A program made the position numbers and the translations under genes. Below are positions 23,735-40,180 of a stretch of 43,630 nucleotides of DNA, in pieces. Origin of the DNA: Sandaracinaceae bacterium (GTDB lineage Bacteria > Myxococcota_A > Polyangia > Polyangiales > JADJQN01); NCBI GenBank assembly GCA_947483975.1, contig CANKOL010000003.1, positions 1-43,630 of the forward strand, read 5' to 3'. Under the pieces are notes generated by a model. That model was given only the letters and a program-made list of their open reading frames with translations, was not told where the DNA came from and made no database searches. Numbering within the stretch: position 1 is the first letter of the stretch; each line of letters begins with the position of its first letter.

Positions 23735-23750
23735 GGGAACAAAACGTGCT
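23735..23750 (+). promoter_or_regulatory. Putative sigma54 promoter of the nuo-kor operon
   Basis: GGGAACAAAACGTGCT: GG-N10-GC spacing (GG 23736-23737, GC 23748-23749) in an AT-richer stretch about 100 nt upstream of nuoA. Confidence 0.35.
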
Positions 23751-23853
23751 AGTTGGCGGGACCTCGAATGACCGCGCGCTCCAAGCTCCTCGACGGCAAC
23801 CCGGTGGTTCCGTCGTGCGTAGCCAGCCGCGTGGCGCAGAGCGGGTGTGCAGG

Positions 23854-24213
23854 ATGAATCAGGGCATCGCGGCGCTCAGCTTCCTCGGCGTCACGTTCGG
23901 GATCGTGATGAGCCTCCTCATCGCCGGGCGCATCCTGCGGGTGCGCGCACGAGTCGAGTCGCCGCTCAAGCATCGCCCCTACGAGTGCGGTGAGGAGCCG
24001 GAGGGCATGGCGTGGATGCAGTTCCACGCGCGCTACTACCTCGTGGCGCTCTTCTTCGTGCTGTTCGACGTGGAGGCAGTCTTCCTGTTTCCGTGGAGCA
24101 CGGTCATCCGCTCGCTCGGCACCTCGACGCTCATCGAGGTCGTCGCCTTCGTGCTGGTGCTCATGATCGGCTGGCTCTACGGGATGCGAAAGGGCGCGCT
24201 GAAGTGGCAATAG
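23854..24213 (+). CDS. nuoA: Complex I-like subunit A
   Basis: [36 protein letters not shown]. Confidence 0.95.
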
Positions 24214-25445
24214 ACGGCAAGATCTCCCTGCCGGTCGTCGGCCCGGGCGACGAGCGCGAGCGCACGTACGAGCACCCCCTCTACAAGCAGCTGCTCAGCG
24301 TGCCCGGGCTCTCGCTCGGGGTCACCTCGCTCGACGCGCTGCTCACCTGGGGGCTGCGGAATTCGCTGTGGGTCTTCCCGATGGCGACGAGCTGCTGCGG
24401 CATCGAGCTGATGGCCGCGGCGGCGAGCCGTGTGGACCTCGATCGCATGGGCACGATCGTCCGGGCGACGCCGCGTCAGGCTGACGTCATGGTCGTCGCG
24501 GGCACGATCACCGTGAAGATGGCGCCCCGCGTGAAGAAGCTCTGGGATCAGATGCCCGAGCCGAAGTGGGCGATCGCGATGGGCTCTTGCGCGATCTCGG
24601 GCGACTTCTATCGGGACCTGTACCCAGTGGTGCCGGGTATCGACACGTTCCTGCCGGTCGATGTCTACATCCCGGGCTGCCCGCCGAACCCCGAAGCGTT
24701 GATGCACGGCCTGCTCCGCCTGCAGGAGAAGGTGCGCCTCCAGCGCCTCGGTCAGTTCGCGACTCCCGAGCCGCGACCGGCGCTGCTCGCGAGCACCAAG
24801 CCGTCGATTCCGCGCTTGAACGACCCAGAGCGTGAAGCGGAGACGAACGAGCAGCAGACGGCTGACGCGATGAAGACCGCGGACAGCGCGGTGGAGCGTC
24901 CGGAGGCGACGGGGAGCTCAGCCGCGAGCGAGGCGCTCAGCCCGGCTCCGGCATTGGAGGGCACGACGCCGCCCGCGAGCTGGCTCGAGTCCCTCTTTGC
25001 CGCGCACGGCGCGCTGGCCTTTCCGAAGGACGCGCCTCCGCTGATCTCCGCAGACCGGCACGTGGCGCTCGCCCGCGCGCTTCAAGAGCGCGGCTACAAG
25101 CAGCTCGTCTACATCGCCGCGAGCCACTGGCTCGCCGGGCGCGGTCGTGCGGGTGCCGATGCGAGCGAGACGGAGCACTTCGAGGTGGCGTTCGCGCTGC
25201 GCACCGTGGGGCGAGCCTCGCAGCTCGCGTCGTGGAGTGTGCGGCTCGAGCCCGGTCAGAGCCTGCCGACGCTGACCGAGGTGTTCGCGGGAGCCGACTG
25301 GCAGGAGCGCGAGCAGTGGGATCTCCTGGGCGTGAAGTTCTCGGGTCACCCCGACTTGCGCAGGATCATGATGCCCGACGACTGGGAAGGTCATCCGTTG
25401 CGCAAAGATTACGCCGCGGATACCCACCGGGCCCCTTGGCGATGA
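24204..25445 (+). CDS. nuoBC: Fused complex I subunits B and C
   Basis: NuoB part: TSCCGIE, PRQADV, GSCAISG, PGCPP (N2 cluster ligands). After a linker, NuoC part: [39 protein letters not shown]. Single open frame from GTG 24204. Confidence 0.92.
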
Positions 25446-26644
25446 CCTCGATGCAGACTCCCACTCACACGCTCAAGTGGCCCAACCCGCACCTCGACAT
25501 GACCGCGTTCGAGGCGGAGGGCGAGCTGATGCTGCTGCACCTCGGGCCGCAGCATCCCTCGACCCACGGCGTCTTCCGCATCGACCTCTACCTCGACGGT
25601 GAGGTCATCGTGAAGGCGGTGCCCTTCGCGGGCTATCTGCACCGCGGCGTCGAGAAGCTGATGGAGCGGCTCACGTACGTGCAGCAGACGCCCATCGTCG
25701 ACAAGCACGACTACGTCGCTCCGATGACGAGCGAGCAGGCGCTCAACGTCGCCTTCGAGAAGCTCCTCGGGGTCGAGGTCCCGCGGCGGGCGCGCTGGCT
25801 GCGTTCGCTCTTCGCGGAGTTGCAGCGCATCGCGTCGCACCTGCTCGCGCTCGGCACGCTCTCGATCGATCTCGGCGGTGCCCTCGGCGGCGGCTCGACG
25901 CTCTTCATCCACTGCTTCCGCGAGCGCGAGCTCATCATGGACCTCTTCGAAGAGGTCACCGGCGCGCGCTTCCACTACAACACGCACACGATCGGCGGCA
26001 ATCGCCACGACGTGACGCCTGAGTGGGCGGCGCATGTGCGGTCCGCGATGAAGACGATCCTCGCGCGGCTCCCCGAGTATGACTCGATGAGCATCGACAA
26101 CAGCATCTTCATCGAGCGCACGCGCGGCGTCGGGGTGCTCGATGGTCGGCTCGCGCTCGAGCTCGGGGTCACGGGTCCGAACCTGCGCGCTTGCGGTGTC
26201 GACCACGATCTGCGCCGCGACGCGCCGTTCCACGCGTACGACGAAGTGCCGGTGAACGTCATCGTCGAGCAGGGGGGCGACAGCCTCGCGCGGGTGCTCG
26301 TCCGCGTGCGAGAGGTGCGCGAGAGCATCCGCCTCGTGGAGGTGCTGCTCGAGGGGCTGCCTGAAGGCCCCATTTGCAGCTACCGGCCCATCAAGCTCGT
26401 CGGGCAGGTGAAGATCGCCTCGGGCCAGGCGTACGCGGCGATCGAGACGCCGCGCGGTGAGCTCGGGACGTTCGTCATCGCGGGCGGGGGCGAGGGAAAT
26501 GCGAGCCCCTACCGCCTGAAGTTCCGGCCTCCGAGCCTGCACTCGCTGTCGGCGCTGCCGTATCTGCTCCCAGGCGCGACGCTGAGCGATGCGGTGACGA
26601 TCCTCGGCTCGCTGGACCCGATCATGGGGGAGGTCGACCGATGA
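25442..26644 (+). CDS. nuoD: Complex I-like subunit D
   Basis: [50 protein letters not shown]; no NiFe-binding CxxC pairs. Confidence 0.95.
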
Positions 26645-27618
26645 GCGGGCTCGTACACGGAGCGGTCTACGGCGTGCTCATCCTCGCCGTCGTGCTCACC
26701 ACCTCGGGGCTGTGGATCTGGGGTGAACGCAAGTTCGCCGCGCGTCTGCAGACTCGCCTTGGGCCGACGATCGTTGGGCCTTTCGGGCTGCTGCAAGCGG
26801 TCGCGGATGTGCTCAAGCTCCTGCAGAAGGAAGACATCATCCCGGCGCAGGCGGACCGGGCGCTGTTCAACATCGCGCCGGTGCTGGCCGCGTTCTGCGC
26901 GCTCGGAGTCGCCGCGGTCATCCCGTTCAGCCCGGACGTGATCGCGTCGGACCTCGACGTCGGCGTGCTCTACATCCTCGGCCTCGGCGCGCTCACCACG
27001 ATCGCGATCTTCCTCGGCGGTTGGGCGAGCAACAACAAGTTCGCGCTGCTCGGCGGGATGCGCTCCGTCGCGCAGGCGATCTCCTACGAGATCCCGCTCG
27101 TGCTCGCCGCGATGGTCCCGGTGATCCTCGCTGGCTCGCTCAGCGTGAGCGACATCGTGCGGTGGCAGGTCGGGCATCATATGTTCGCCCTCTGGCCGAT
27201 CGTGCCGGGGCTCCCCGCGTTCGGCATCTTCTTCATGGCGATGCTGGCCGAGTCGAACCGCATTCCGTTCGACATCCCCGAGGCCGAGAGCGAGCTCGTC
27301 GGCGGGATCACGACCGAATACACCGGCATCAAGTTCACGCTGTTCTACATGGCGGAGTACGTGCACACGCTGGTCGGCTCAGCGGTCGCGGCGGCCCTGT
27401 TCCTCGGCGGCTGGGACGGCCCGTTCGCCCCCGGCTTGCACTGGATGGTCGCGAAGACGCTGGTGCTCTTCGTGTCGGTGTATTGGATCCGCTGGTCGCT
27501 CGTGCGGTTCCGCTCTGACCAACTCTTGACGATGTGCTGGCGCTACCTCGTCCCGGCGTCCGTGCTGCTGGTGCTCGCCGCGGCGCTTTGGGTTCAGCTC
27601 TTCCCGGAGTTCCTCTGA
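26641..27618 (+). CDS. nuoH: Complex I-like subunit H
   Basis: ERKFAARLQTRLGP, GLLQAVADVLKLLQKE, AQAISYEIP, NRIPFDIPEAESELVGG.TEY. Confidence 0.96.
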   Translation: MSGLVHGAVYGVLILAVVLTTSGLWIWGERKFAARLQTRLGPTIVGPFGLLQAVADVLKLLQKEDIIPAQADRALFNIAPVLAAFCALGVAAVIPFSPDVIASDLDVGVLYILGLGALTTIAIFLGGWASNNKFALLGGMRSVAQAISYEIPLVLAAMVPVILAGSLSVSDIVRWQVGHHMFALWPIVPGLPAFGIFFMAMLAESNRIPFDIPEAESELVGGITTEYTGIKFTLFYMAEYVHTLVGSAVAAALFLGGWDGPFAPGLHWMVAKTLVLFVSVYWIRWSLVRFRSDQLLTMCWRYLVPASVLLVLAAALWVQLFPEFL

Positions 27619-28352
27619 TGCGGCACCTGATCGACGCGTCACGCGCGCTCTTCACCACGATGCGGCAAGTGCTGCGCACGCCCGTGACGGTGCAGTTCCC
27701 GACCGAGATCCGTAAGCGCCCGGAGCGCTACCGCACGAGCTTCGCGCTGCTCCACGACGAGCACGGCGAGGAGCTCTGCATCGGTTGTCTGCAGTGCGAG
27801 CGCATCTGCCCTTCGACCGTCATCACCGTCACTCAGGGGCCGAAGGCGGAGTCGAAGGTCACCGGCAAGAAGCGCGGCTGGGCCTCGGACTTCGTGCTCG
27901 ACACGACCGCGTGCATCTCCTGCGAGCTTTGCGTGCAGGTGTGTCCCACGGACGCGCTGATCATGACGCAGGTGGCGGATATCCCCGCGTACTCGCGCGA
28001 AGAGCTCGTCCTCACGATGGACAAGCTCTACGCGCACGAGAAGGACAAGCCCGCCTCCTGGGGTACCGGCACGCGCCTCATGGGGATGCAAGAGGCTCCC
28101 AAGGAAGAGAAGAAGCCGAAGCCCGCGAAGCCTGTCGCGGCCGCGGCGCCCGCAGCGGCCGAGGCTGCGCCTGCTGCCGCGCTAGCCGCAGCCGAGCCCA
28201 CGAGCGCGCCCGTCGTCGTGGCTCCGGTGGCTGCGGCCGAGCCCGCGAGCGCGCCCGTCGTCGCGGCTGCGCTGGCTGCGCCGCCCGTCGCAGAGACCTC
28301 CGCCGTCGCGCCCGCGGCTCCGGCGCCGGCCACGAAAGAGGAGTCCAAGTGA
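27618..28352 (+). CDS. nuoI: Complex I-like subunit I (2x[4Fe-4S]) with a Lys- then Ala/Pro-rich C-terminal tail
   Basis: CIGCLQCERICP and CISCELCVQVCP; tail EAPKEEKKPKPAKPVAAAAP... Confidence 0.94.
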   Translation: MRHLIDASRALFTTMRQVLRTPVTVQFPTEIRKRPERYRTSFALLHDEHGEELCIGCLQCERICPSTVITVTQGPKAESKVTGKKRGWASDFVLDTTACISCELCVQVCPTDALIMTQVADIPAYSREELVLTMDKLYAHEKDKPASWGTGTRLMGMQEAPKEEKKPKPAKPVAAAAPAAAEAAPAAALAAAEPTSAPVVVAPVAAAEPASAPVVAAALAAPPVAETSAVAPAAPAPATKEESK

Positions 28353-28921
28353 CCGTCGCCATCGGGTTCGGCGTGGTAGCCGCCATTGCGCTGCTCTCCG
28401 CGATCCTGGTCGTCCGCTCTCCGAACCTCGTGCACGCCGTCCTCTGGCTCGGCGTCACGCTCATCGACACTGCGGTGCTCTACGGCATGCTCGGCGCGTC
28501 GTTTCTCGCCGGCGTGCAGGTGCTGTTGTACGTCGGCGGCGTCGTCACGCTGATGGTCTTCGGCGTGATGTTGACGCGGCGGCACGACGGCCTCTCGGTG
28601 CCGGCAGCCAGCGGGTCCCCGTGGCGCGGCGCGCTGACCGCAGCCGTGCTGTTCGGCGTCATCGCGGCAGCCGTCATGCGCAGCGACCTGGAGCACGCGC
28701 CGGTGGCTCCGACGGCAGGTCCTCCCGCGGTCGAGGCGCTCGCCGCCAGCAGCCAAGCGACCACGCAGGCGATCGGCTTCGAGCTTCTCTCCACCCACGT
28801 GCTCGCGTTTGAAGTGCTCTCCCTGCTGCTGCTCGCAGCGATCATCGGCGCCGTCGTCATCGCGCGGCGCCGCGACCATGGCGCGCTCGACCAGAACGCC
28901 AGAACGGAGGCGTCCTCGTGA
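28349..28921 (+). CDS. nuoJ: Complex I-like subunit J
   Basis: NLVHAVLWL, QVLLYVGGVVTLMVFGVML, FEVLSLLLLAAIIGAVVIAR. Confidence 0.93.
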   Translation: MTVAIGFGVVAAIALLSAILVVRSPNLVHAVLWLGVTLIDTAVLYGMLGASFLAGVQVLLYVGGVVTLMVFGVMLTRRHDGLSVPAASGSPWRGALTAAVLFGVIAAAVMRSDLEHAPVAPTAGPPAVEALAASSQATTQAIGFELLSTHVLAFEVLSLLLLAAIIGAVVIARRRDHGALDQNARTEASS

Positions 28922-29217
28922 CGCTGTCGACCTCCATCCTGCTCGCTGCGGCGATGTTCTCCGTGGGCGTCTATGGCCTGCTGACGCGCCGCCATGCGGT
29001 CGCGATCCTGCTGTCCGTGGAGCTGATGGCCAACGCCGCCAACCTCAGCTTCGTCGCCTTCTCGCACTTCCGCGGAGGCGCGACCGGGCAACTGTTCGCG
29101 CTCTTCGCCCTCGCGATCACGGTGGCTGAGGTCGCCGTCGGCTTGGCGCTGGTGCTGCTTCTCTATCGAACCTACGGCGACACTCGTACGGATGCTGCGA
29201 AGGAGCTTCGAGGATGA
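28918..29217 (+). CDS. nuoK: Complex I-like subunit K
   Basis: SVELMANAANL, GQLFALF, AEVAVGLAL. Confidence 0.95.
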   Translation: MTLSTSILLAAAMFSVGVYGLLTRRHAVAILLSVELMANAANLSFVAFSHFRGGATGQLFALFALAITVAEVAVGLALVLLLYRTYGDTRTDAAKELRG

Positions 29218-31049
29218 GTCTCCCCGTCGGTGCGCTTCCGCTCGAAGCCGCGCCCATTCCGGCGTTCGTCGCGCTCTTCGCTCCCGCCGTCGCTGCGCTC
29301 GTGCTCGCCGCAGCGCCGGCGCTCCGCAGGCGTGGCGCGCCCGCGTCGTGGGTGACGCTCACGGCGTCACTCCTCGCGACGGCCGCGGCGGTCACCCTGC
29401 TCGTCACCCAACTCCGTGAGGGCGGCAGCCATGTTTGGATGGCCTCGTGGCTGCAGATCAACGGCGCCGGCGTCGGCGACTTCGGGGTGCGTCTCGACGG
29501 CGTCTCGGCGACCATGCTGTTGGTCGTCTGCGTGGTCGCGACCTGCGTGCAGGTCTTCTCCCTCGGCTACATGCACGACGAGAAGCCGCCCGCGTTCGGG
29601 CGCTACTTTGCGTATCACGCGCTCTTCCTGTTCAGCATGAACTTGCTCGTGCTCGCTCCGGACTTGCTCCAGCTGTTCGCGGGCTGGGAGCTGGTCGGCG
29701 CGACGAGCTATCTGCTGATCGGCTTCTACTATCAGAAGCCCAGCGCCGGGCAGGCCGCGCTGAAGGCGTTCTGGATCACGAAGCTCGCGGACATGGGCTT
29801 CCTCATGGCGCTGATGGTCCTCTACAAGACGACCGGCACGTTCCGCTGGGACGCCGCCGTGACTGCGGCGACCGCGACGACGGTCAGCGGGCTCCTCTTC
29901 TTCGCCGTCGTCGGAAAGTCCGCGCAGTTCCCGCTCCACATCTGGCTGCCGGACGCGATGGAGGGGCCGACGCCCGTCTCGGCGCTGCTCCATGCCGCGA
30001 CGATGGTGGCGGCGGGCGTGTTCCTCATCGTTCGCGCCAACCCGCTGTTCGCGCACGCCCCCGCGACGCGCGACGTGATGCTGCTGGTGGGCTCCGGGAC
30101 GGCGCTCTTCGCCGCGTGCCTCGCGCTCGTGCAGACCGACATCAAGAAGGTGCTCGCGTACTCGACCTGCTCGCAGCTCGGCTACATGGTCGCGGCGCTC
30201 GGCGCGGGCTCGGTGTTCGGCGGGTTCTTCCACCTCGCGACGCACGCGTTCTTCAAGGCGCTGCTCTTCCTCGCGGCTGGCAGCGTCATCCACGCGGTGC
30301 ACTCGAACGAGCTCGCCGACATGGGCGGCTTGCGCCGACGCATGCCGGTGACCGCGACCACCTTCATCATCGGCGCGATGTCGCTCGCAGGTATCCCTGG
30401 CCTCGCGGGCTTCTTCAGCAAGGACCTGGTGCTCGCATCGGTCGAAGGCCGGTACGGCTGGGTGCCATTCGGCGCGCTGATGGCGACGGCGTTCCTCACC
30501 GCCTTCTACATGGGCCGCGTGGTGTTCCTCGCGTTCTTCGGCGAGGCGCGCGGTCACGCGGGGCATGCGCACGAGTCGGGCGGCTCGCTGCTCGTGCCGC
30601 TGCTCGTGCTCACCGTGCCGTCGGTCGCGCTCGGTTGGGTCGCCGCGCCGCTCGCGCACCTCTCGGGCGCGACCTATGAGCTGCATCTCGTCGGCGTCGT
30701 GCCGATCCTCGCCGCGTCGCTCGGGTTGGGGGGCTTCGCGCTCGCGTGGGTGGTGTACGGCCGCGGGACGCTGGTCGTCAGCGCGCTCGCGCCGCTCGAG
30801 CGCCTCGTCGCGACGCGCGCAGTCAATCGCGTGTACGAGGTCGGCTATCGCCGCGTGCTCCTGGTCGTCGCCGATGTGCTCGGCTGGATCGACCGCTACC
30901 TGATCGATGGGCTCATGAACTTCCTCGGCTGGTCCGCCGTCGCGGGTGGGCGCGCGCTCCGCAGGGTGCAGACCGGCAACGCCCAGGACTACGTCTTCGC
31001 CGTCGTGCTGGGCGCAATCGCCCTGGCGGCTTGGGGGTTGCTACCGTGA
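29214..31049 (+). CDS. nuoL: Complex I-like antiporter subunit L
   Basis: GWELVG, KSAQFPLHIWLPDAMEGPTPVSALLHAATMVAAG, DIKKVLAYSTCSQLG, THAFFKALLFL, C-terminal QTGNAQDY. Confidence 0.96.
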   Translation: MSLPVGALPLEAAPIPAFVALFAPAVAALVLAAAPALRRRGAPASWVTLTASLLATAAAVTLLVTQLREGGSHVWMASWLQINGAGVGDFGVRLDGVSATMLLVVCVVATCVQVFSLGYMHDEKPPAFGRYFAYHALFLFSMNLLVLAPDLLQLFAGWELVGATSYLLIGFYYQKPSAGQAALKAFWITKLADMGFLMALMVLYKTTGTFRWDAAVTAATATTVSGLLFFAVVGKSAQFPLHIWLPDAMEGPTPVSALLHAATMVAAGVFLIVRANPLFAHAPATRDVMLLVGSGTALFAACLALVQTDIKKVLAYSTCSQLGYMVAALGAGSVFGGFFHLATHAFFKALLFLAAGSVIHAVHSNELADMGGLRRRMPVTATTFIIGAMSLAGIPGLAGFFSKDLVLASVEGRYGWVPFGALMATAFLTAFYMGRVVFLAFFGEARGHAGHAHESGGSLLVPLLVLTVPSVALGWVAAPLAHLSGATYELHLVGVVPILAASLGLGGFALAWVVYGRGTLVVSALAPLERLVATRAVNRVYEVGYRRVLLVVADVLGWIDRYLIDGLMNFLGWSAVAGGRALRRVQTGNAQDYVFAVVLGAIALAAWGLLP

Positions 31050-32590
31050 TCGCTGCGCTTCTCCCGGTCATCGTCGCCGCGCCCGCAGTGGCGGCGCTCA
31101 TCCTCCTCGCGATCCCTTCGCGGTATGCGATCGCGACGCGCGTCGTCTCCATGGCGGGCGCGACGGTGTCCTTCGCAGGTTCGGTGCTCGCCGCCGTGCA
31201 TTACGATCGGCACGTGGGCGGGCTGCAGATGCCCTTCGACTTGCCGCTGATCCCCTCGCTCGGAGTCCATCTGAGCCTGGCGATCGATGGCTGGGGTGTC
31301 TCGCTCGTCCTGCTGACCGGCGTGATCATCTTCGCCGCGGTGCTCGCGAGCTTCACCGTTCAGCGTCGCGACAAAGAGTTCTTCATCTACCTGCTGGTCC
31401 TGGTGTCGGGCGTCTTCGGCGTCTTCGTCTGCCAGGATCTGCTGATCTTCTTCTTGTTCTACGAGATCGCCGTTCTGCCGATGTACCTGCTCATCGGCAT
31501 CTGGGGCTCGAGCAACGTCGTCCCGGAGGCGGGGCCTTTCCGCTTCGTGTGGAAGATCTTCGACGTCGGTGGGCGCGAGTACGCCGCGATGAAGCTGACG
31601 GTGATGCTGCTGCTCGGCTCAGCCGCGATCCTCGTCAGCATCTTCGTGCTCTATCAGGGGGCCGGCGCGACGACGTTCAACCTCGGCGTGCTCGGCGCCG
31701 TGCCCTACGCGCGCACGACGCAGATCATCGTCTTCCCGCTGCTGTGGATGGGCTTTGGCTCGCTCGGCGGCGTGTTCCCCTTCCACACTTGGTCGCCCGA
31801 CGGGCACGCCGCTGCGCCGACGGCGGTGTCGATGCTGCACGCCGGCGTGCTGATGAAGCTGGGCGCGTTCGGCGTGATCCGCATCGGCATGATGCTGCTG
31901 CCGGTGGGCGCCGCGTACTGGGCGCCGACCGTCGGCGCGGTCGCGGTCGTCAACATCCTCTACGGCGCGATGTGCGCGATGAGCCAGAAGGACCTCAAGT
32001 ACATCGTCGCGTACTCGTCGGTCAGTCATATGGGCGTCGTCATGCTCGGCGCCGCGACGCTCAACGCGACCGGCTGGAACGGCGCGATCTTCCAGATGTT
32101 CGCGCACGGCGTGATGACGGCGCTCTTGTTCTCGCTCGTCGGGCTCGTCTACGAGCGCGCGCACACCCGCATCATCGCGAAGATGGGCGGCTTCGGCACG
32201 ATCATGCCGGGCGTCGCGACGTTCTTCACGCTCGCGATGCTGTCGTCGCTCGGCCTGCCGGGCACGGCGGGCTTCGCCGCTGAGCTGATGGTCTTCCTCG
32301 GCGCGTGGCACGGCTCGCACGCCTGGTGGACCATCCCCGCGATCCTCGGCGCCTTCGTCACCGCGATCTACGTGCTGCGCGCGAGCCGCGCGATCTTCTG
32401 GGGCCCCGGCCCGAGCGAGCACTTCCACGACCTCTACGATGCGCGCGGCGTCGAGTGGGCCGCGCCCATCGTGTTGGCGGTCGCCATCGTGGTGTTCGGC
32501 GTCTGGCCTAGATTGCTGCTCGATCTGATCGACCCAGCGACCATCGAGTACCTGCGCGACTTCGCGAGCGCGATCGTGAGGCAGCCGTGA
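31046..32590 (+). CDS. nuoM: Complex I-like antiporter subunit M
   Basis: FYEIAVLPMYLLIGIWG, FPFHTWSPDGHAAAPTAVSMLHAGVLMKLG, AYSSVSHMG, SLGLPGTAGF. Confidence 0.96.
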   Translation: MIAALLPVIVAAPAVAALILLAIPSRYAIATRVVSMAGATVSFAGSVLAAVHYDRHVGGLQMPFDLPLIPSLGVHLSLAIDGWGVSLVLLTGVIIFAAVLASFTVQRRDKEFFIYLLVLVSGVFGVFVCQDLLIFFLFYEIAVLPMYLLIGIWGSSNVVPEAGPFRFVWKIFDVGGREYAAMKLTVMLLLGSAAILVSIFVLYQGAGATTFNLGVLGAVPYARTTQIIVFPLLWMGFGSLGGVFPFHTWSPDGHAAAPTAVSMLHAGVLMKLGAFGVIRIGMMLLPVGAAYWAPTVGAVAVVNILYGAMCAMSQKDLKYIVAYSSVSHMGVVMLGAATLNATGWNGAIFQMFAHGVMTALLFSLVGLVYERAHTRIIAKMGGFGTIMPGVATFFTLAMLSSLGLPGTAGFAAELMVFLGAWHGSHAWWTIPAILGAFVTAIYVLRASRAIFWGPGPSEHFHDLYDARGVEWAAPIVLAVAIVVFGVWPRLLLDLIDPATIEYLRDFASAIVRQP

Positions 32591-34143
32591 CCTTCGATAC
32601 GCTGCGTCCTCTGGTGCTTCCGCTCGCCGTCACCGCGGCGGCGCTCGTCGTGCTCCTAGCGGACCTCGCGCTGCCGCCCAACAGCGCGCGGCGCGGCAAG
32701 GTCCTCGGCGGCCTGACCGTGGCGCTCCTCAGCGGCGTGCTCGTCGCCTCGTTCGTCGTCGACACCTCCGGCCTTGCGGCGCACGGCGCCTACGTCGGCA
32801 ACGCGTGGACGACCTTCTTCGCGCGCTTGTTCCTCGTCGCCGGAGCGCTGGGCGTCCTCGGCGCGATGGAACACCTCGAGGCGCACGCGCCTAGACGGCA
32901 GGGCGAGTACTACACGCTGTTGCTCTTCAGCATCGTCGGCATGATGATCGTGCCGGGCGCGCGCGACTTGCTGCTGCTCGTCGTCGCCTTCGAGCTGATG
33001 GGCATCCCGCTCTACATCCTCGCGGCGTACGCGAAGACCGACGCGGCGAAGACGCGCAAGGTGTCCGACCCTGCGCGCGCGTTCGACGCGGCGGAGGCTG
33101 CGAAGGCACCCCACGCGCCCGCGGCAGAGGCCGCGATCAAGCTCTATCTCGTCGGCGCGACCAGCACGGCGATCACGCTGTTCGGTCTGTCGCTCGTCGT
33201 CGGCATGGCTGGGACCACGCGCCTCGCCGGGCTCTTCGGCGCCGAGACGCCCGCGCCGATCACGGTCGTCGGGATGATGCTCGTGCTCGCGGGGCTCTCG
33301 TTCAAGATCGGCGTCGTCCCCTTCCATATGTGGGTCCCCGACACGTACGAGGGCGCGCCGACTCCGTTCGTCGCGTTCCTCTCCGTGGCGCCGAAGGCCG
33401 GCGGCATCGCGGCGCTCGTCGTCGTGTTCCTGCTCGGCACGGGCGGACATCCAGGGCACTGGACGCTCGCCATCGCCGTGCTCGCCGCGGCGTCGATGAC
33501 CATCGGCAACCTGCTCGCGCTGCCGCAGACGGATGTGCGTCGTCTGCTCGGCTTCTCGGGCGTCGCGCAGATGGGCTATGTGCTGCTCGCGATCGCGACC
33601 GGCAACGCAGAGGGGCTGTCGACGGCTGCGTTCTACCTCGCCGCGTACGTCGTCTCGAACATGGGCGCGTTCCTCGTGCTGCACGCGGTCGCGGCGGATG
33701 GCGGCACGCACGACCTCGCGGGGCTCGCGGGGCTCTCGCGGCGCTCGCCGTTCCTCGGGCTCTCGCTGCTGGCGTTCTTGCTCTCGCTCGCCGGCATCCC
33801 GTTCATGATCGGCTTCTGGGCGAAGCTCTTCATCTTCCTCGCGGCCTATCGCGCGGGCCTCGTCGGGCTCGTCGTGCTCGGCTCCGTGCTCGCGGTCGTC
33901 GGCTTGTTCTACTATCTGCAGGTGGCGCGGGCGGCCTACATGGTCGAGCCGACTCAGGCTGCTGCGCCGCGCGTCGGCGGAGCGCTGCGGGCGGCCATCT
34001 TGTTCTGTCTGCTTGCCGCGGCGGGGCTCGGTCTCTGGCCGGCGCCGCTCCACGAGAGCGCCAGCGAAGCAGGCGCCTCACTTTCGAACTCGCTCTCGAC
34101 GGGCACTCCAGCGCCGGTTTCACCAGGAGACGATTCTCAATGA
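32587..34143 (+). CDS. nuoN: Complex I-like antiporter subunit N
   Basis: FELMGIPLY, FKIGVVPFHMWVPDTYEGAPTP, SLAGIP..IGFWAK. Confidence 0.96.
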   Translation: MTFDTLRPLVLPLAVTAAALVVLLADLALPPNSARRGKVLGGLTVALLSGVLVASFVVDTSGLAAHGAYVGNAWTTFFARLFLVAGALGVLGAMEHLEAHAPRRQGEYYTLLLFSIVGMMIVPGARDLLLLVVAFELMGIPLYILAAYAKTDAAKTRKVSDPARAFDAAEAAKAPHAPAAEAAIKLYLVGATSTAITLFGLSLVVGMAGTTRLAGLFGAETPAPITVVGMMLVLAGLSFKIGVVPFHMWVPDTYEGAPTPFVAFLSVAPKAGGIAALVVVFLLGTGGHPGHWTLAIAVLAAASMTIGNLLALPQTDVRRLLGFSGVAQMGYVLLAIATGNAEGLSTAAFYLAAYVVSNMGAFLVLHAVAADGGTHDLAGLAGLSRRSPFLGLSLLAFLLSLAGIPFMIGFWAKLFIFLAAYRAGLVGLVVLGSVLAVVGLFYYLQVARAAYMVEPTQAAAPRVGGALRAAILFCLLAAAGLGLWPAPLHESASEAGASLSNSLSTGTPAPVSPGDDSQ

Positions 34144-35966
34144 GCATTCCTTCGGTCTCAGGCAGCGGTCACTCGAGCGACCTGACCATCGGCATGGCCG
34201 GGTCGGGCGGCGATGGCATCGTCAGCGCGGGTGAGTCCCTCATCGCGGCGGCGGCGAGCCAGGGCTATCACGCGATCATGACCAAGAGCTTCGGCTCTCA
34301 GATCCGCGGCGGCGAGTCCTCCTGTCGCGTGCGCATCGCGGTCGACCGTATCTACAATCCAGGCGGCGTACTCGACGTCGCGGTCGCGCTCAACTGGGAG
34401 GACTTCCTGCGCTTCGGTGCGGAGCTGCCCGTCGGCCCGTCGACCGTGGTGATCTACGAGGAGAAGACCGGCGTTGCGCCGGACAAGCTCCCGATCGTAG
34501 GCGTCGTGCCGACCGACGTCTTCGCGGTGCCGATCGCCGAGCTCGCCCGGAAGGCTGCCGGCACGGACATGGCCAAGAACACCATCGTCCTCGGGCTCCT
34601 CGCGGGCTGGTTCGACATCGCGCCGGAAGGCATCGTGCGGGGCATCCGCAAGCGCTTCGCCAAGAAGAGCGCGGAGCTCGTCGCGGCCAACGAAGAGGCG
34701 TTCCGCGTCGGCACCGAGTACGCGAAGTCGCACCCGCTGCGCGTGCCGCGCGTGCTCAAGCGCCCGCTCGAGAACACCGGCGGCAAGATGCTGCTCGATG
34801 GCAACGATATGTGCGCGGCGGCGGCGATCTTCGCGGGTTGCGAGGCGTTTGGCGGCTATCCGATCACGCCGTCGACCGAGATCATGCAGTTCCTCACGCG
34901 CGAGATCTGGAAGTACGGCGGCACCGTGATGCAGGCCGAGGACGAGATCGCGAGCATCGGTGTCGCGATTGGCTCGTCGTACGCGGGCAAGAAGTCGATG
35001 ACCGCGACCTCCGGGCCCGGCATGGCGCTCAAGACCGAGATGCTCGGCCTCGCGACCATCGCGGAACTCCCGCTGGTGCTCGTCAACGTGCAGCGCGGTG
35101 GCCCCTCGACAGGGCTGCCGACCAAGCCCGAGCAGAGCGACCTCTTTCAGGCGGCCTACTCTGGGCACGGCGATGTGCTTCGGCCGATCCTCGCGCCGAC
35201 GACCGTCGCGGACACCTTCCGGATCACGGTCGAGGCGTTCAACATCGCCGAGGAATACCAGACGCCGGTGATCATCCTGTCGGACCAGGAGATCGGCCAG
35301 CGCAAGGAGACCGCGGACCCGATCGACACCAGCCAGTTCAAGATCATCGACCGGCTGAAGCCGACCGCCGTCGAGCTCGAGAGCTACAACCGCTTCCGCC
35401 TCACGGAGTCGGGCATCAGCCCGATCAGCCACCCCGGCATGGCTGGCGGCAATTACCTCGCCTCCGGCATCGAGCACAACGAGCACGGTGACCCGACGGG
35501 CAGCGGCGCGCTCCACAAGCTCATGAACGAGAAGCGCTTCCGCAAGCTCGACCCGCTCAAGCAGCGGCGCGATCTCTTCGCCGTCGAGGGCGATGTGGAC
35601 GCGGACGTCGCGATGATCGCCTGGGGCTCGGTCGCCGGCGTGTGTCACGAGGCGCTCGCCATCGCGCGCGCCGCGGGTGTGCGGGCCAAGCTGCTCGTGC
35701 CGTATCTGATCTACCCGATCGCCGAGGAGGTCTACGACGACTTCTTCGCGGGTGTGCGCGTGGGGCTCGTCGTCGAGCTCTCGCATCAAGGGCAGCTCTA
35801 TCGGATCCTGCGCAGCTTCGTCGATGTGCCGCGCGGCGTGCGGCAGATGACGCGCAACGGCGCCAACCCGTTCCAGCCTCGTGAGGTGGCGGACGAGCTG
35901 ATGAAGCTCGCGAGCGCTCCGGCCCAAGTTCGCGGTGCAGCAGCCAGCGCAGGAGTGACGCAATGA
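34140..35966 (+). CDS. korA: 2-oxoacid:ferredoxin oxidoreductase alpha subunit (gamma-alpha fusion, KorA type)
   Basis: GSGGDGIVSAG, QIRGGES, GYPITPSTE, QAEDEIAS, TSGPG, VQRGGPSTGLPTK; ATGA overlap with the nuoN stop. Substrate specificity cannot be determined from this. Confidence 0.92.
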   Translation: MSIPSVSGSGHSSDLTIGMAGSGGDGIVSAGESLIAAAASQGYHAIMTKSFGSQIRGGESSCRVRIAVDRIYNPGGVLDVAVALNWEDFLRFGAELPVGPSTVVIYEEKTGVAPDKLPIVGVVPTDVFAVPIAELARKAAGTDMAKNTIVLGLLAGWFDIAPEGIVRGIRKRFAKKSAELVAANEEAFRVGTEYAKSHPLRVPRVLKRPLENTGGKMLLDGNDMCAAAAIFAGCEAFGGYPITPSTEIMQFLTREIWKYGGTVMQAEDEIASIGVAIGSSYAGKKSMTATSGPGMALKTEMLGLATIAELPLVLVNVQRGGPSTGLPTKPEQSDLFQAAYSGHGDVLRPILAPTTVADTFRITVEAFNIAEEYQTPVIILSDQEIGQRKETADPIDTSQFKIIDRLKPTAVELESYNRFRLTESGISPISHPGMAGGNYLASGIEHNEHGDPTGSGALHKLMNEKRFRKLDPLKQRRDLFAVEGDVDADVAMIAWGSVAGVCHEALAIARAAGVRAKLLVPYLIYPIAEEVYDDFFAGVRVGLVVELSHQGQLYRILRSFVDVPRGVRQMTRNGANPFQPREVADELMKLASAPAQVRGAAASAGVTQ

Positions 35967-36835
35967 CCACGAATCCGCTTCTGGTGGCCAAGGATTTCAA
36001 GTCCGACCTCAAGCCCATTTGGTGTCCCGGCTGCGGTGACTTCGGCGTCGTGCAGGCCATCTACCGGGCGCTCGCGGGCGTCGGGCGTCCGCCCCACGAG
36101 ATCGCGTTCGTCTCGGGAATCGGCTGCTCGAGTCGCATCCCCGGATACACGACGGCGTACGGCTTCAACAGCGTGCACGGGCGCTCACTGCCCATCGCGC
36201 AGGGCATCAAGATGGCCAATCCCGACCTGCTCGTGCTCTGCGCGGGCGGCGACGGTGACGGCTTCTCGATCGGCGGAGGGCACGTCGCGCACGCGGTCCG
36301 GCGCAATCCCGACATCACCTACATCGTGATGGACAATCAGATCTACGGGCTCACCAAGGGGCAGCTCTCGCCGACCTCGCCGTGTGGCCTCAAGACCGTG
36401 ACCTCGACGTACGGCAGCTTCGAGCAGCCGGTCAATCCGCTGCTCTATCTGCTCTCGTACGGGGCAGGCTTCGTCGCGCAGGCGACGCCCGCCGACATGG
36501 CGGGGATGGCGTCGGTGATCGAGGAGGCCATTCGTTATCCGGGCTTCTCCTTCGTCAACATTCAGTCGCCGTGCGTCACCTACGGGCAGGAGACGCAGCA
36601 GGTGAAGGCACATCGCTCGCAGATGAAGTCGCTCGCGAGCGTCGGGCACGACCCGGCGAACCGCATGGGCGCGTTCGAGCTCGCGTCGCACTACGGCGAG
36701 GAGCTCTACACGGGCGTGTTCTACCGGAACCCGACGCCGCCCCCGACGTACGACGCGCTGTTCCGCGGGCGTCAGGCGGAGCTGGCGACGAAGGTCCCGC
36801 GCGACCGCATCCTCGACATGTTCGTCCAGCGCTGA
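35963..36835 (+). CDS. korB: 2-oxoacid:ferredoxin oxidoreductase beta subunit (TPP-binding)
   Basis: WCPGCGD, SGIGCSS, HGR, GDGD...N TPP motif, YGLTKGQ.SPT, SPCVT. Confidence 0.93.
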   Translation: MTTNPLLVAKDFKSDLKPIWCPGCGDFGVVQAIYRALAGVGRPPHEIAFVSGIGCSSRIPGYTTAYGFNSVHGRSLPIAQGIKMANPDLLVLCAGGDGDGFSIGGGHVAHAVRRNPDITYIVMDNQIYGLTKGQLSPTSPCGLKTVTSTYGSFEQPVNPLLYLLSYGAGFVAQATPADMAGMASVIEEAIRYPGFSFVNIQSPCVTYGQETQQVKAHRSQMKSLASVGHDPANRMGAFELASHYGEELYTGVFYRNPTPPPTYDALFRGRQAELATKVPRDRILDMFVQR

Positions 36836-36850
36836 GCGAGGAGACACGCC

Positions 36851-37381
36851 ATGACCACCAACGTGCAGGGCATCGACTTCAGCAAGCTCTCGCTGCGTGA
36901 CGCGCTCGACCTCGCCATCCTCGTCGAGGAGGAGGCGAAGGAGCGCTACGAGGAGCTCGCCGAGCAGCTCGAGCAACACCGCACCCCGGAGGCGGCCAAG
37001 TTCTTCCGCTTCATGGTCGAGAACGAGGCGAAGCACCGGGCGGACCTCGCCGAGCGTCGCCGCGTGCTCTACGGGCGCGAGCCTTCGACCGTCACGCGCG
37101 ACATGATCTTCGACATCGAGGCGCCCGAGTACGACGAGGCGCGCGCGTTCATGTCGCTGCGGCAGGCGCTCGAGGTCGCGCTGCGCGCCGAGCAGAAGGC
37201 GCACGCGTTCTTCGTCGGGGCGATGCCGAGCGCGACGGACCCCGCGGTTCGCGCGCTCTTCGACTCCCTGCGCCTCGACGAGATCGAGCACCAGAATCTC
37301 GTGCAAGCCCAGCTCGACAAGCTGCCGCCGGACCCCGTGGCGAAGCCCGAGGACTACGGCGACGAGCCTGTCAGTCAGTAG
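36851..37381 (+). CDS. Ferritin-like/rubrerythrin-family diiron protein (no rubredoxin domain)
   Basis: Duplicated E...ExxH helices: LAILVEEEA...ENEAKH and ALRAEQKA...DEIEH; GAGGAG RBS; no CxxC pairs. Confidence 0.88.
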   Translation: MTTNVQGIDFSKLSLRDALDLAILVEEEAKERYEELAEQLEQHRTPEAAKFFRFMVENEAKHRADLAERRRVLYGREPSTVTRDMIFDIEAPEYDEARAFMSLRQALEVALRAEQKAHAFFVGAMPSATDPAVRALFDSLRLDEIEHQNLVQAQLDKLPPDPVAKPEDYGDEPVSQ

Positions 37382-37483
37382 GCGGCGGGGACGACGCAGC
37401 GGCTCCTGAGGGGGCGTGGGGCGAGGTGACTCCCGAAAGGCCGTGCGGAAGCGCGCGGCCTCGGCGTGTTACCGTCGCTGCCC

Positions 37484-40180
37484 ATGTCGCCGGGGAGCCA
37501 GCTGGATCGTGAGTCTCGACGGCTCGCGGAAGACGGTCGTCGAGAGAGCAACTGGAAGCGCTGGGGCCCTTACCTCTCGGAGAGGCAGTGGGGCACCGTG
37601 CGCGAGGACTACTCTGCGGACGGGGACGCTTGGCGGTACTTCCCGCACGAGCACGCGCGGAGTCGCACCTATCGCTGGGGCGAGGACGGGCTGCTCGGCC
37701 TCTGCGACCGGCAGGGACGGCTGTGTTTTGGCCTCGCGCTGTGGAACGAGCGCGACCCGTTCTTGAAGGAGCGCCTGTTTGGGCTCTCGGGGCCGGAGGG
37801 CAATCACGGCGAGGACGTGAAGGAGGCGTACTTCTATCTCGACTCGACGCCGACGCACTCGTATCAGCGCGCGCTCTACAAGTATCCGCAGCGGGCGTTC
37901 CCCTACGAGGAGCTGCTGCGGGTCAACCGCGAGCGTGGGCGCGGAGACCTCGAGTACGACCTCGAGGACACTGGCATCTTCGACGATGGGCGGTATTTCG
38001 ACGTCACGGCGGAGTATGCGAAGGGCGCGCCGAACGACCTCTTGATTCGGCTCACGGTAGAGAACCGCGGGCCCGACGCGGCGAAGCTGCATCTGCTGCC
38101 GACGCTCTGGTTTCGCAACACCTGGAGCTGGGGGCGCTCGAGCGAGGGTTATACCAAGCGACCTTCGCTGCGGCGGACGTCGCTGGGAGTCGTGTCCGCG
38201 GAGCACGAGAGCCTCGGGACGTATCGATTCTTCGTCTCGCCGCAGGCTGACGGCGCCGAGGTGCCGCTGCTCTTCACGGAGAACGAGTCGAACACTCAAG
38301 TGCTCTACGGAGTGCCCAACAAGGGGCCCGTGAAGGACGCGTTTCACGCGCACATCGTCTCGCGCACGCCGGGCGTGCTCGCCGCCGAAGCCGAGGGCAC
38401 GAAGTGCGCGGCGCACCATGTGCTCGAGGTGCCTGCGCGCGGGCGTGCGGTGGTGGACTTGCGGCTGACCGAGGCGAGCCTCTGCGAGGGCGCCGACTTC
38501 GCGCCGTTCGGCGAGGGTTTTGCCGCGATCTTCGCGGAGCGCCGCGCGGACGCGGACGCGTTCTATGCGGCGCGACTGCCGCCGAAGTTGACCGAGGACG
38601 AGCGCAACGTCGCGCGGCAGGCGTATGCGGGGCTGCTCTTCACGAAGCAGTTCTTTCACTACAACGTCGGGGAGTGGCTCGCTGGCGACCCCGCGCATCC
38701 GGCGCCGCCGCCTGCGCGGCTGAAGGGGCGCAATCGAGAGTGGAAGCACGTCGCGACTCGCGATGTGATCTCCATGCCGGACAAGTGGGAGTATCCCTGG
38801 TTCGCAGCGTGGGATTTGGCGTTCCACATGATCCCCTTCGCCAACATCGATCCTGGCTTTGCGAAGGACCAGCTGATCCTGTTCTTGCGCGAGTGGTACA
38901 TGCACCCGAATGGGCAGCTCCCAGCCTACGAATGGAACCTCGGGGACGTGAACCCGCCCGTGCACGCGTGGGCCGCGTGGCGCGTCTACAAGCTGACTGG
39001 GCCCAAGGGGGCGCGGGATCGGCAGTTCCTCGCGCGGGTGTTTCACAAGCTCTTGCTCAACTTCACCTGGTGGGTGAATCGGAAGGATGCTGAGGGGAAC
39101 AACCTCTTCGGCGGAGGGTTCCTCGGGCTCGACAACATCGGGATCTTCGATCGAAGCAAGCCTCTGCCGACGGGCGGACGGCTCGAGCAGGCGGACGGCA
39201 CGGCGTGGATGGCGTTCTATTGCACGACGATGCTGTCGATCGCGCTGGAGCTCGCGCGGGAGGACCCGACGTACGAGGACGTCGCGTCGAAGTTCTTCGA
39301 GCACTTCGTGCACATCGCGGACGCGATGAACACGCACGGAGGAAGTGGACTCTGGGACGAGCGCGACGGGTTTTATTACGATCAATTGCTGATCGGGGAA
39401 CAGGCGGGCGAGCAGCACATCGAGCCGATGCGAATTCGGTCGATGGTGGGGATCATTCCGCTGTTCGGCGTCGCCGTGCTCGACGACGAACTGCTCGCGT
39501 CGTTGCCCGGTTTTCGCAAGAGAATGCAGTGGTTTCTCGACAATCGCCCGGATCTCTCGCGGCAGGTCTCGTACATGGCGGGAGGCAAGCGGCATGGCGC
39601 GCTGCGCCTGCTCGCGGTGCCGTCGCGCGAGCGGTTGACGCGGGTGCTGCGCACCGTGCTCGACGAGGGCGAGATGCTGTCGCCGTATGGCGTGCGGTCG
39701 ATGTCGCTCGCGCACCGGGACAAGCCGTTCGTGCTCCAAGCGGGCGGGCAGACGTTCGATGTTCGCTATGTGCCGGGCGAGAGCGATTCGGGGATGTTTG
39801 GGGGGAATTCGAACTGGCGCGGACCGATCTGGATGCCGGTGAATTACCTGCTGATCGAGGCGCTCGATCGCTATCATCAGTATTACGGCGACGCGTTTCG
39901 CGTGGAGTGTCCGACGGACTCGGGGCAGTTGTTGACGCTCGCGCAGATCGCGCGGGAGCTGCAACGCCGGCTGACGCTGCCGTTCGTGCGCGACGAGCAC
40001 GGGCGGCGCCCGTGCCATGGGGACGACGCGCGCTTCGTGGAGGACCCGCACTGGAAGGAGCTATTGCTCTTTCACGAGTACTTCCACGGGGACACCGGGC
40101 GCGGGCTCGGCGCGTCCCATCAGACGGGCTGGACCGCGCTCGTGGCGAGCTGTCTCGACGAGGTCGGGCGGAGGCGCTGA
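37484..40180 (+). CDS. MGH1-like / GH63-family glycoside hydrolase (glucosidase)
   Basis: WGPYLSERQWGTVREDYS, GNHGEDVKE, SMPDKWEYPWFAAWDLAFH, FGGNSNWRGPIW, GLGASHQTGWT. Confidence 0.92.
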   Translation: MSPGSQLDRESRRLAEDGRRESNWKRWGPYLSERQWGTVREDYSADGDAWRYFPHEHARSRTYRWGEDGLLGLCDRQGRLCFGLALWNERDPFLKERLFGLSGPEGNHGEDVKEAYFYLDSTPTHSYQRALYKYPQRAFPYEELLRVNRERGRGDLEYDLEDTGIFDDGRYFDVTAEYAKGAPNDLLIRLTVENRGPDAAKLHLLPTLWFRNTWSWGRSSEGYTKRPSLRRTSLGVVSAEHESLGTYRFFVSPQADGAEVPLLFTENESNTQVLYGVPNKGPVKDAFHAHIVSRTPGVLAAEAEGTKCAAHHVLEVPARGRAVVDLRLTEASLCEGADFAPFGEGFAAIFAERRADADAFYAARLPPKLTEDERNVARQAYAGLLFTKQFFHYNVGEWLAGDPAHPAPPPARLKGRNREWKHVATRDVISMPDKWEYPWFAAWDLAFHMIPFANIDPGFAKDQLILFLREWYMHPNGQLPAYEWNLGDVNPPVHAWAAWRVYKLTGPKGARDRQFLARVFHKLLLNFTWWVNRKDAEGNNLFGGGFLGLDNIGIFDRSKPLPTGGRLEQADGTAWMAFYCTTMLSIALELAREDPTYEDVASKFFEHFVHIADAMNTHGGSGLWDERDGFYYDQLLIGEQAGEQHIEPMRIRSMVGIIPLFGVAVLDDELLASLPGFRKRMQWFLDNRPDLSRQVSYMAGGKRHGALRLLAVPSRERLTRVLRTVLDEGEMLSPYGVRSMSLAHRDKPFVLQAGGQTFDVRYVPGESDSGMFGGNSNWRGPIWMPVNYLLIEALDRYHQYYGDAFRVECPTDSGQLLTLAQIARELQRRLTLPFVRDEHGRRPCHGDDARFVEDPHWKELLLFHEYFHGDTGRGLGASHQTGWTALVASCLDEVGRRR

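Follow-up and report, generated by a model that had tools for sequence, protein, structure and literature searches.

Complex I operons without nuoE, nuoF, and nuoG, the genes of the NADH module, are common in bacterial genomes and are routinely annotated as perhaps ferredoxin using, and ferredoxin use by NuoEFG-less complexes is already a routine inference. To our knowledge, the electron donor of such a complex has been identified only in cyanobacteria, Campylobacter, and methanogens. Cyanobacterial and chloroplast NDH-1 binds ferredoxin through the extra subunits NdhS, NdhV, and NdhO, and Campylobacter jejuni retains nuoG, has two other genes in place of nuoE and nuoF, and uses flavodoxin as the carrier. 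Here we describe a 43,630-nucleotide (nt) stretch of DNA from a Sandaracinaceae bacterium (contig CANKOL010000003.1, here C3; the whole stretch is called the window, and coordinates refer to it). Positions 23854 to 37381 of its forward strand hold 13 genes for an 11-subunit NuoEFG-less complex I, a predicted 2-oxoacid:ferredoxin oxidoreductase (OFOR), KorAB, and a rubrerythrin-like di-iron protein. On balance, we favor the reading that these genes form one operon encoding a ferredoxin-linked respiratory module.

The complex I of C. jejuni is reported to be fed by flavodoxin that is reduced by 2-oxoglutarate and pyruvate:acceptor oxidoreductases (cited in PMC4453560). The window locus would resemble this system in having a 2-oxoacid oxidoreductase as the source of electrons for a non-NADH complex I and a small soluble carrier of low potential between the two. 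It differs, however, in that nuoD and nuoH overlap by 4 nt with no substitute genes, the candidate carrier is a YfhL ferredoxin, and the oxidoreductase is co-operonic. With NDH-1, a ferredoxin-dependent enzyme, the window complex shares the same 11 core subunits and the lack of NuoEFG, and among solved proteins NdhH (6hum_H) ranks second in similarity to the window NuoD (E value, 7e-85; full length). Unlike the NDH-1 case, NdhS, NdhV, and NdhO are not in the window operon, whose 13 open reading frames (ORFs) are all accounted for (the rest of the genome was not searched for them), and no ferredoxin-reducing enzyme is known to be encoded together with NDH-1. The nuoABCDHIJKLMN operons of Melioribacter roseus and MBNT15 have the identical gene set, and the same inference of a non-NADH donor, e.g., reduced ferredoxin, was drawn for them (PMC3534657, PMC9386147). 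The excerpts of these two papers name no donor enzyme, whereas here a ferredoxin-reducing enzyme is co-operonic, the pairing is recurrent, and a ferredoxin gene is present in relatives. In Nitrospira, a complex I of the 2M type, in the excerpted text, is hypothesized to reduce ferredoxin for 2-oxoglutarate and pyruvate:ferredoxin oxidoreductases (OGOR and POR) (PMC6606698). The triangle of a NuoEF-less complex I, a ferredoxin, and an OFOR is the same, but the window complex has one NuoM and a NuoL of normal length, the Nitrospira hypothesis concerns reverse flow in autotrophs, and the excerpted text describes no gene linkage of OGOR. Unlike the window, loci from Opitutaceae described below do join korAB with a two-NuoM operon. 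Full-text searches of a limited literature collection returned no paper describing a nuo-korAB gene linkage and, as far as this literature goes, the co-operonic and recurrent linkage of korAB to NuoEFG-less complex I is new.

Gene content of the nuo-kor locus

The gene order is nuoA-BC-D-H-I-J-K-L-M-N-korA-korB-rubrerythrin-like gene, each gene being assigned by a Pfam family above the curated cutoff. This order, as well as the overlap of every junction from nuoA to korB, had been claimed in a first-pass annotation of the DNA, and both claims were confirmed. The overlaps range from 1 to 10 nt. Those of nuoBC/nuoD, nuoD/nuoH, nuoI/nuoJ, nuoJ/nuoK, nuoK/nuoL, nuoL/nuoM, nuoM/nuoN, nuoN/korA (34140 to 34143), and korA/korB are 4-nt ATGA or GTGA overlaps, nuoH and nuoI share 1 nt (TGATG), and nuoA and nuoBC share 10 nt, given the GTG at 24204 as the nuoBC start; the N terminus read from this GTG matches, in the alignment, orthologs starting at residue 1 or 2. 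An AGGAG lies 10 nt upstream of the korA ATG, and korB is separated from the rubrerythrin-like gene by 15 nt. Because nuoD overlaps nuoH, no nuoE, nuoF, or nuoG can fit in between, and tblastn detected no NuoE, NuoF, or NuoG homologs, either in the window or among the 80 related loci considered below. The direct abutment of nuoD and nuoH noted earlier also stands.

The nuoN/korA junction is spanned by contigs of three other studies (X5, 31814 to 35398; X14, 31838 to 35943; and X10, 33721 to 34555) and is therefore no assembly artifact or chimera. Sequencing runs X16 to X19, which contain small shares only, do not enter this comparison. In one metatranscriptome library, 151-nt contigs matched nuoBC, the nuoBC/nuoD junction, nuoI, nuoL, nuoM, korA, and korB, and a 506-nt contig (36647 to 37151) spanned the junction of korB with the rubrerythrin-like gene; none of the contigs of this library crossed nuoN/korA, and 14 of 30 bins had no cover. 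These contigs are a weak hint that the operon is expressed. A scan of positions 22000 to 38500 (the G+C content of the window is ~70%) gave 0 promoter-like sites and 5 terminator-like sites, compared with 6.1 in shuffled sequences, which leaves the operon boundary unreadable by this means.

KorA (34140 to 35966; 608 amino acids [aa]) is a fused gamma-alpha subunit with the domains PF01558 (POR), PF01855 (POR_N), and PF17147 (PFOR_II), and it scores 561.9 against NCBIfam TIGR03710 (2-oxoacid:acceptor oxidoreductase alpha; cutoff, 482.75). KorB (35963 to 36835; 290 aa) is the beta subunit, binding thiamine pyrophosphate (TPP) and a [4Fe-4S] cluster, and contains PF02775 (TPP_enzyme_C) and PF12367 (PFO_beta_C), with a score of 267.7 against TIGR02177 (2-oxoacid:acceptor oxidoreductase beta; cutoff, 261.9). 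The nearest solved structure for both is a two-subunit enzyme (6n2n/6n2o; E values of 1e-116 for KorA against 6n2n_A and 1e-71 for KorB against 6n2n_B), and the alignments cover nearly complete chains: KorA residues 13 to 585 align to residues 4 to 566 of 573, and KorB residues 9 to 264 align to residues 14 to 265 of 292. The KorB cysteines 21, 24, 55, and 204 are invariant in the alignment and aligned to 6n2n_B; the two enzymes share the two-chain architecture and the CPGC...C...C pattern. The structures were deposited under the name of a pyruvate ferredoxin/flavodoxin oxidoreductase, and we take the enzyme to be the 2-oxoglutarate synthase of the reverse tricarboxylic acid (TCA) cycle of Magnetococcus marinus. 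The partner of that enzyme is a free ferredoxin, and its genes are not known to be linked to those of complex I. No Pfam match to a Fer4 (delta; 2x[4Fe-4S]) domain was obtained in KorA or KorB. The lack of an OFOR delta subunit, pointed out in the first-pass annotation, is thus real, but it is normal for the two-subunit class and not an unusual trait. KorAB is predicted to be a two-subunit TPP- and [4Fe-4S]-dependent 2-oxoacid:ferredoxin oxidoreductase, probably specific for 2-oxoglutarate.

All 11 core subunits of complex I (A, B, C, D, H, I, J, K, L, M, and N) are encoded together in the window. NuoA (23854 to 24213; 119 aa) matches PF00507 (Oxidored_q4; 111 bits). The next gene (24204 to 25445; 413 aa) encodes a NuoB-NuoC fusion, PF01058 (Oxidored_q6) and PF00329 (Complex1_30kDa) in Pfam and the NuoB and NuoC families in NCBIfam, joined by a low-complexity linker of ~100 aa; its NuoB half retains the cysteines of the CC...C...C pattern (SCCG, GSCA, and GCPP), presumably ligands of one Fe-S cluster. 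NuoD, the quinone-site subunit (25442 to 26644; 400 aa; PF00346, 258 bits; NF004739, 393.7 versus a cutoff of 360), has Nqo4 of T. thermophilus (2fug_4) as its best solved match; opposite H38 and Y87, which we take to be the quinone-binding residues of Nqo4, NuoD carries His and Tyr, the pattern of the 49-kDa quinone-site subunit and not the Ni-Fe cysteines of hydrogenases. NuoH (26641 to 27618; 325 aa) matches PF00146 with 367 bits. NuoI (27618 to 28352; 244 aa; Fer4 families) has two CxxCxxCxxxC motifs, and its score against TIGR01971, 96 bits, is under the cutoff of 113. The cysteines 54, 57, 60, 64, 99, 102, 105, and 109, presumably the ligands of two Fe-S clusters, are invariant in 11 orthologs. 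From about residue 160 onwards, NuoI is an Ala/Pro-rich low-complexity tail that is unconserved among orthologs. The extra length of NuoI was considered as a docking domain and ruled out, being this tail, which the orthologs do not have in common.

The remaining subunits are NuoJ (28349 to 28921; 190 aa; PF00499), NuoK (28918 to 29217; 99 aa; PF00420), NuoL (29214 to 31049; 611 aa; PF00361 and PF00662; NF005141, 569 versus a cutoff of 556), NuoM (31046 to 32590; 514 aa; PF00361), and NuoN (32587 to 34143; 518 aa; PF00361; TIGR01770, 315 bits, under the cutoff of 333). NuoL is single and of normal length, and with one NuoL, one NuoM, and one NuoN, the window contains no extra antiporter-like subunit of the kinds looked for (a second NuoM, or two MrpD-like proteins in place of NuoL). 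Given the conserved cysteines of NuoB and NuoI and the His and Tyr of NuoD at the aligned quinone-site positions, the complex I core looks functional.

The last gene (36851 to 37381; 176 aa) encodes a rubrerythrin/ferritin-like di-iron protein (PF02915, 55.5 bits versus a cutoff of 22.8). EAKH and EIEH motifs are visible in it, no rubredoxin domain was matched, and the nearest structure, 2oh3 (2oh3_A; E value, 8e-9), is an uncharacterized protein; we predict an erythrin-like, rubredoxin-less member of the family.

Recurrence of the linkage and the ferredoxin

A scan of one genome per species gave 461 KorA relatives, the best 80 of which (61 to 77% identity) were kept. NuoEFG-less nuo genes lie beside korAB in 25 of these 80 nearest loci, the 25 being from two phyla, and the flanks of 33 loci were too short to judge, so that the linked share is 25 of the 47 loci with flanks long enough. 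The adjacency of nuo and korA, whose lack of conservation in relatives the first-pass annotation had named as a refutation, thus recurs. It takes five arrangements: nuoN followed by korA, korAB and the rubrerythrin-like gene followed by nuoA, korAB flanked by a nuo operon on each side, and a convergent and a divergent form. In the KorA tree (FastTree), the window and the 25 linked loci (26 rows) all fall into two clades, one dominated by Myxococcota (22 rows: 15 linked, 2 unlinked, and 5 with short flanks) and one of Opitutaceae (13 rows: 11 linked and 2 with short flanks). The identity to the window Nuo proteins is 50 to 77% in most Myxococcota loci and 30 to 57% in loci L021 and L017 and in the Opitutaceae, which indicates that the partner nuo lineages differ. 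We conclude that korAB and nuo came together in each of two separate KorA clades and that at least three distinct nuo lineages were involved.

Among 40 genomes of the same order, KorA orthologs (66 to 71% identity) were found in three (G013, G027, and G032) and orthologous NuoD in four. The orthologous korA and nuoD are on the same contig in two of the three: the gene order of G013 is identical to that of the window, and in G027 korA, korB, and the rubrerythrin-like gene are directly upstream of nuoA. As a control in the same 40 genomes, none of 24 paralog-level KorA places (50% identity or less) was near a NuoD place. A sample of 400 Myxococcota genomes contained seven KorA loci, arranged convergently in G402, divergently in G353, with kor upstream in G129, and with nuoN upstream in G415, and in the other three there was no nuo gene within the available sequence; the nuo clade and the KorA clade occur together only in G402 and G129.

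In most of the related Myxococcota clusters the rubrerythrin-like gene comes after korB, and a few loci of Acidobacteriota have it upstream, on the other strand. Its ORF cluster is present in 29 of the 91 sources compared (90 loci, including duplicates, plus the window). Apart from the kor and nuo genes, the only recurrent elements in this ORF clustering were the rubrerythrin-like gene and antisense shadow ORFs.

In the window cluster, there is no ferredoxin ORF or Fer4 domain in or beside korAB. Three metagenome-assembled genomes (MAGs) of Myxococcota, however, have a YfhL-type 2x[4Fe-4S] ferredoxin gene, above the NCBIfam cutoff, inside the cluster: ahead of nuoA in L006 (2742 to 3047; order fdx-nuoA...N-korAB-rbr, with fdx and rbr being the ferredoxin and rubrerythrin-like genes), behind korAB-rbr in L016 (13267 to 13569), and between korAB-rbr and nuoA in L022 (5819 to 6124). 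Since each of these genomes has another YfhL gene outside the cluster, the one inside it is an extra paralog. The source genome has one YfhL copy, on contig C284 (4386 to 4691; locus L096), which adjoins a MiaB-like gene and is unlinked to the cluster. Besides NuoI and the three YfhL genes, a looser scan of all loci for the cysteine motifs of ferredoxins gave only a few small ORFs of doubtful status. The statement that no free ferredoxin is encoded therefore holds for the window but not for the genome or for the three related clusters. The cluster YfhL paralogs are the strongest pointer to a ferredoxin-mediated link as opposed to direct docking of KorAB, and the recurrent pairing as a whole points to KorAB-reduced ferredoxin as the electron donor of the headless complexes.

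In the Opitutaceae, one korAB is placed between two NuoEFG-less operons, as in the complete-chromosome MAG G426 (C1, 4048000 to 4087800; L107 and L108). Its upstream operon is nuoA-B-C-D-I-H-J-K-L-M-M-N, with a NuoL of 691 aa, and its downstream operon is nuoA-B-C-D-H-I-J-K-L-L-M-N, with NuoL proteins of 519 and 593 aa; further such loci are L069, L075, L077 to L079, L081 to L083, L085, L087, and L088. Judged by their gene content and by the excerpted literature, these operons resemble the 2M and green types of complex I. The Opitutaceae MAGs with korAB between nuo operons also hold a canonical NuoD-NuoF locus. In G426, a NuoD match near a NuoF-like gene (C1, 3829312 to 3830102) is in several short pieces in different frames and may be a degraded canonical nuoD.

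The source genome

The source is a freshwater Myxococcota MAG of 524 contigs, 81% complete, and the window DNA is present in lake and freshwater metagenomes of several studies. A separate NADH-type complex I, the presence of which had been put forward as a point to check, is encoded in two pieces: nuoA-B-C-D-G-H-I on contig C266, running to the contig edge, and nuoE-F-J-K-L-M-N on contig C21. The split of this canonical set is unusual, and the longest nuoL ORF in the two loci is 1,003 aa. Matches to NuoE, NuoF, and NuoG (tblastn and Pfam, genome wide) were confined to C21, C266, and C66. The C66 locus (3 to 4863), with NuoF-like and NuoG-like (molybdopterin formate dehydrogenase) genes and FdhD, is that of a NAD-linked formate dehydrogenase, which accounts for the second NuoF match. 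Orphan nuoEFG genes, which the first-pass annotation had named as evidence against its proposal, were not found in this MAG, which lacks 19% of the genome. Also encoded are sucA (2-oxoglutarate dehydrogenase E1) and three further OFOR family loci, giving four POR_N loci in total. With its own complete NADH-type complex I and sucA in the genome, the headless set is an addition and not a fragment. ATP-citrate lyase (PF16114) had no match in the genome, and likewise none in 14 control genomes, which makes this result uninformative. Five other cluster-bearing genomes also have NuoF matches besides the headless nuoD copies, and in G427 and G428 a NuoF and a full-length match to NuoD share a contig and are no more than 1 to 2 kb apart.

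Elsewhere in the source genome, contig C13 (~11500 to 25400) carries a long PFOR-like gene (POR_N at 11497 to 12186, in a 1,258-aa frame) ~6 kb from a complex I-related cluster, perhaps an Mbx or group 4 hydrogenase type, whose genes resemble those for NuoB, NuoD, NuoH, and antiporters, and this is a second pairing of an OFOR with a complex I relative in the same genome. Upstream of nuoA in the window (15698 to 22384 on the reverse strand and 22108 to 23460 on the forward strand), there are three or four multiheme c-type cytochrome genes and a radical SAM/SPASM gene. The cytochromes are c7/c3 like, with motifs of the Geobacter type, and their presence hints at a low-oxygen or extracellular electron transfer lifestyle. 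Downstream, synteny with the same-genus genome G001 (C3, from 16857 onward) begins at window position 37448, immediately past the rubrerythrin-like gene, at a GH63-like gene (79% identity). Left of this position nothing is shared with G001, which puts the cluster on the border of a variable region, and a clean insertion cannot be defined.

Proposed electron route, alternatives, and implications

In the proposed route, which we place just on the probable side, KorAB would oxidize a 2-oxoacid with coenzyme A (CoA) to acyl-CoA and CO2 and would reduce a small soluble YfhL family 2x[4Fe-4S] ferredoxin. The ferredoxin would give its electrons to the exposed NuoI end of the Fe-S chain of the 11-subunit complex, from which the NuoB cluster would relay them to quinone in the NuoD/NuoH site, with NuoL, NuoM, and NuoN pumping protons. 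The net reaction would be a 2-oxoacid:quinone oxidoreduction conserving more energy than the NADH route, and the module would run alongside 2-oxoglutarate dehydrogenase and the canonical NADH-dependent complex I. KorAB and ferredoxin are sensitive to oxygen, and the rubrerythrin-like di-iron protein would most likely guard them against peroxide or O2. What the sequences themselves show is the gene content, the intact cofactor and quinone-site motifs, the recurrence of the linkage, and the extra ferredoxin paralog of some clusters; that ferredoxin is the carrier, that the flow is oxidative, which 2-oxoacid is used, and what the rubrerythrin-like protein does are predictions. The Myxococcota are known as heterotrophs, and together with the three ordinary antiporter-like subunits and the TCA enzymes of a heterotroph in the genome, this favors the oxidative direction.

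Several observations weigh against this proposal. Neither the 2-oxoacid used nor the direction of electron flow is readable from sequence; the NCBIfam equivalogs for 2-oxoglutarate synthase score under their cutoffs (NF007206, 264.6 versus 579; NF007207, 178.8 versus 364). The window cluster has no ferredoxin gene and only 3 linked loci have one, and all 80 related loci are from MAGs or metagenome assemblies. Nor is the linkage at all general: in 22 of the 47 loci that can be judged, nuo genes are absent from a stretch of at least 8 kb to either side. The RNA signal consists of assembled contigs of one run, in which DNA carry-over is possible. The same-genus genome G001 and two genomes of the same family have neither gene set, and in the 400 sampled Myxococcota genomes the NuoD clade (56 genomes) is about eight times more common than the KorA clade (7 genomes), from which it follows that most such complexes work without this KorAB. 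Ten sampled headless operons (L097 to L106) also lack it. KorAB had been proposed as the dedicated input module of the complex, a phrase that is too strong for the nuo side. Two of the ten operons, L099 and L100, have inserts of unrelated genes (FG-GAP, glycosyltransferase, and CAP domain proteins). In a third, L103 (G108, contig C210, 507 to 2991), which belongs to the same nuo clade, nuoA is immediately preceded by a paralogous korAB whose KorA and KorB are 30% and 46% identical to those of the window, and this may be another, independent OFOR-nuo pairing.

The same parts could also operate in reverse, the proton motive force pushing electrons from quinol to ferredoxin and KorAB carboxylating succinyl-CoA to 2-oxoglutarate for CO2 assimilation or anaplerosis. 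The nearest solved homolog, 6n2n/6n2o, presumably a reverse-TCA enzyme, fits this direction. So does the quinol-to-ferredoxin flow through a NuoEFG-less or 2M complex I feeding OGOR and POR that the excerpted Nitrospira papers hypothesize (PMC6606698, PMC9040806). The Opitutaceae korAB, between two-NuoM and two-NuoL-like complexes, is joined to the very extra-pump types of that hypothesis. The window complex, however, is an ordinary one with a single NuoL, NuoM, and NuoN, and it belongs to a genome with 2-oxoglutarate dehydrogenase E1 and to a phylum known for heterotrophs, so we consider reverse operation unlikely here.

Direct docking, the bolder version of the first-pass proposal, would do without ferredoxin: KorAB would sit on the NuoI/NuoBC/NuoD face bared by the missing NuoG and pass electrons from the [4Fe-4S] cluster of its beta subunit to NuoI. 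The translational coupling of nuoN and korA in the window would suit such an assembly, as would the lack of a ferredoxin gene in most linked clusters, that of the window included. Yet KorA and KorB have no added domain compared with the free-standing solved enzyme, the tail of NuoI is of low complexity and unconserved, and the linkage persists in divergent and convergent orientations, in which cotranslational assembly is impossible. Moreover, most complexes of this nuo clade exist without this KorAB, and three clusters took in an extra ferredoxin paralog, a finding that favors the ferredoxin-mediated route. Docking is therefore improbable in our judgment. We are similarly doubtful of a broader version, in which KorAB would be a detachable, lineage-hopping head docked on NuoI, making a new 2-oxoacid:quinone proton pump with YfhL as at most an optional bridge, and in which one Opitutaceae KorAB would serve two extra-pump complexes.

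It is also hard to credit that the core borrows NuoE, NuoF, and NuoG from other loci to work as a second NADH:quinone oxidoreductase, with korAB a neighbor through a shared role in the TCA cycle and respiration. Assembly in trans already occurs in this genome, since the canonical set is split (nuoE and nuoF stand by nuoJ to nuoN, and nuoG stands by nuoA to nuoD and nuoH-nuoI), but the subunits needed to bind NuoEFG are only 32 to 46% identical between the two sets. The number of NuoF proteins per examined genome is explicable by canonical complex I plus formate dehydrogenase-type loci, as in the source genome (G000), and borrowing would leave unexplained why korAB, across two phyla and in five gene orders, came to stand beside NuoEFG-less operons that belong to different lineages and why three clusters have extra ferredoxin paralogs. 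Least credible is mere coregulation under the same condition, e.g., low oxygen, with KorAB-reduced ferredoxin going mainly to other consumers and the complex having another donor: the nuo clade mostly without this KorAB, the other ferredoxin-linked enzymes of the genome (four POR_N loci), and the multiheme cytochrome genes just upstream in the window would allow it, but the pairing is found in two KorA clades with at least three nuo lineages, a paralogous korAB is directly upstream of nuoA in L103, and besides nuo and the rubrerythrin-like gene no family is repeatedly linked to korAB in the window and the 90 loci.

The ferredoxin-mediated route from KorAB to the NuoEFG-less complex thus remains the reading that we prefer. 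In two phyla, korAB is linked to three kinds of complex, the ordinary one, the two-NuoM one, and the two-NuoL-like one, and this linkage, together with the ferredoxin paralogs, gives a concrete, testable triplet of donor, carrier, and acceptor. The minimal set of 13 to 14 genes could be used for the heterologous reconstitution of a ferredoxin:quinone proton pump. If the module were run in reverse, it would explain a source of low-potential ferredoxin from the quinone pool. If the oxidative route is confirmed, it would explain how some (micro)aerobic heterotrophs gain extra proton motive force, compared with the NADH route, from the 2-oxoglutarate step of the TCA cycle.

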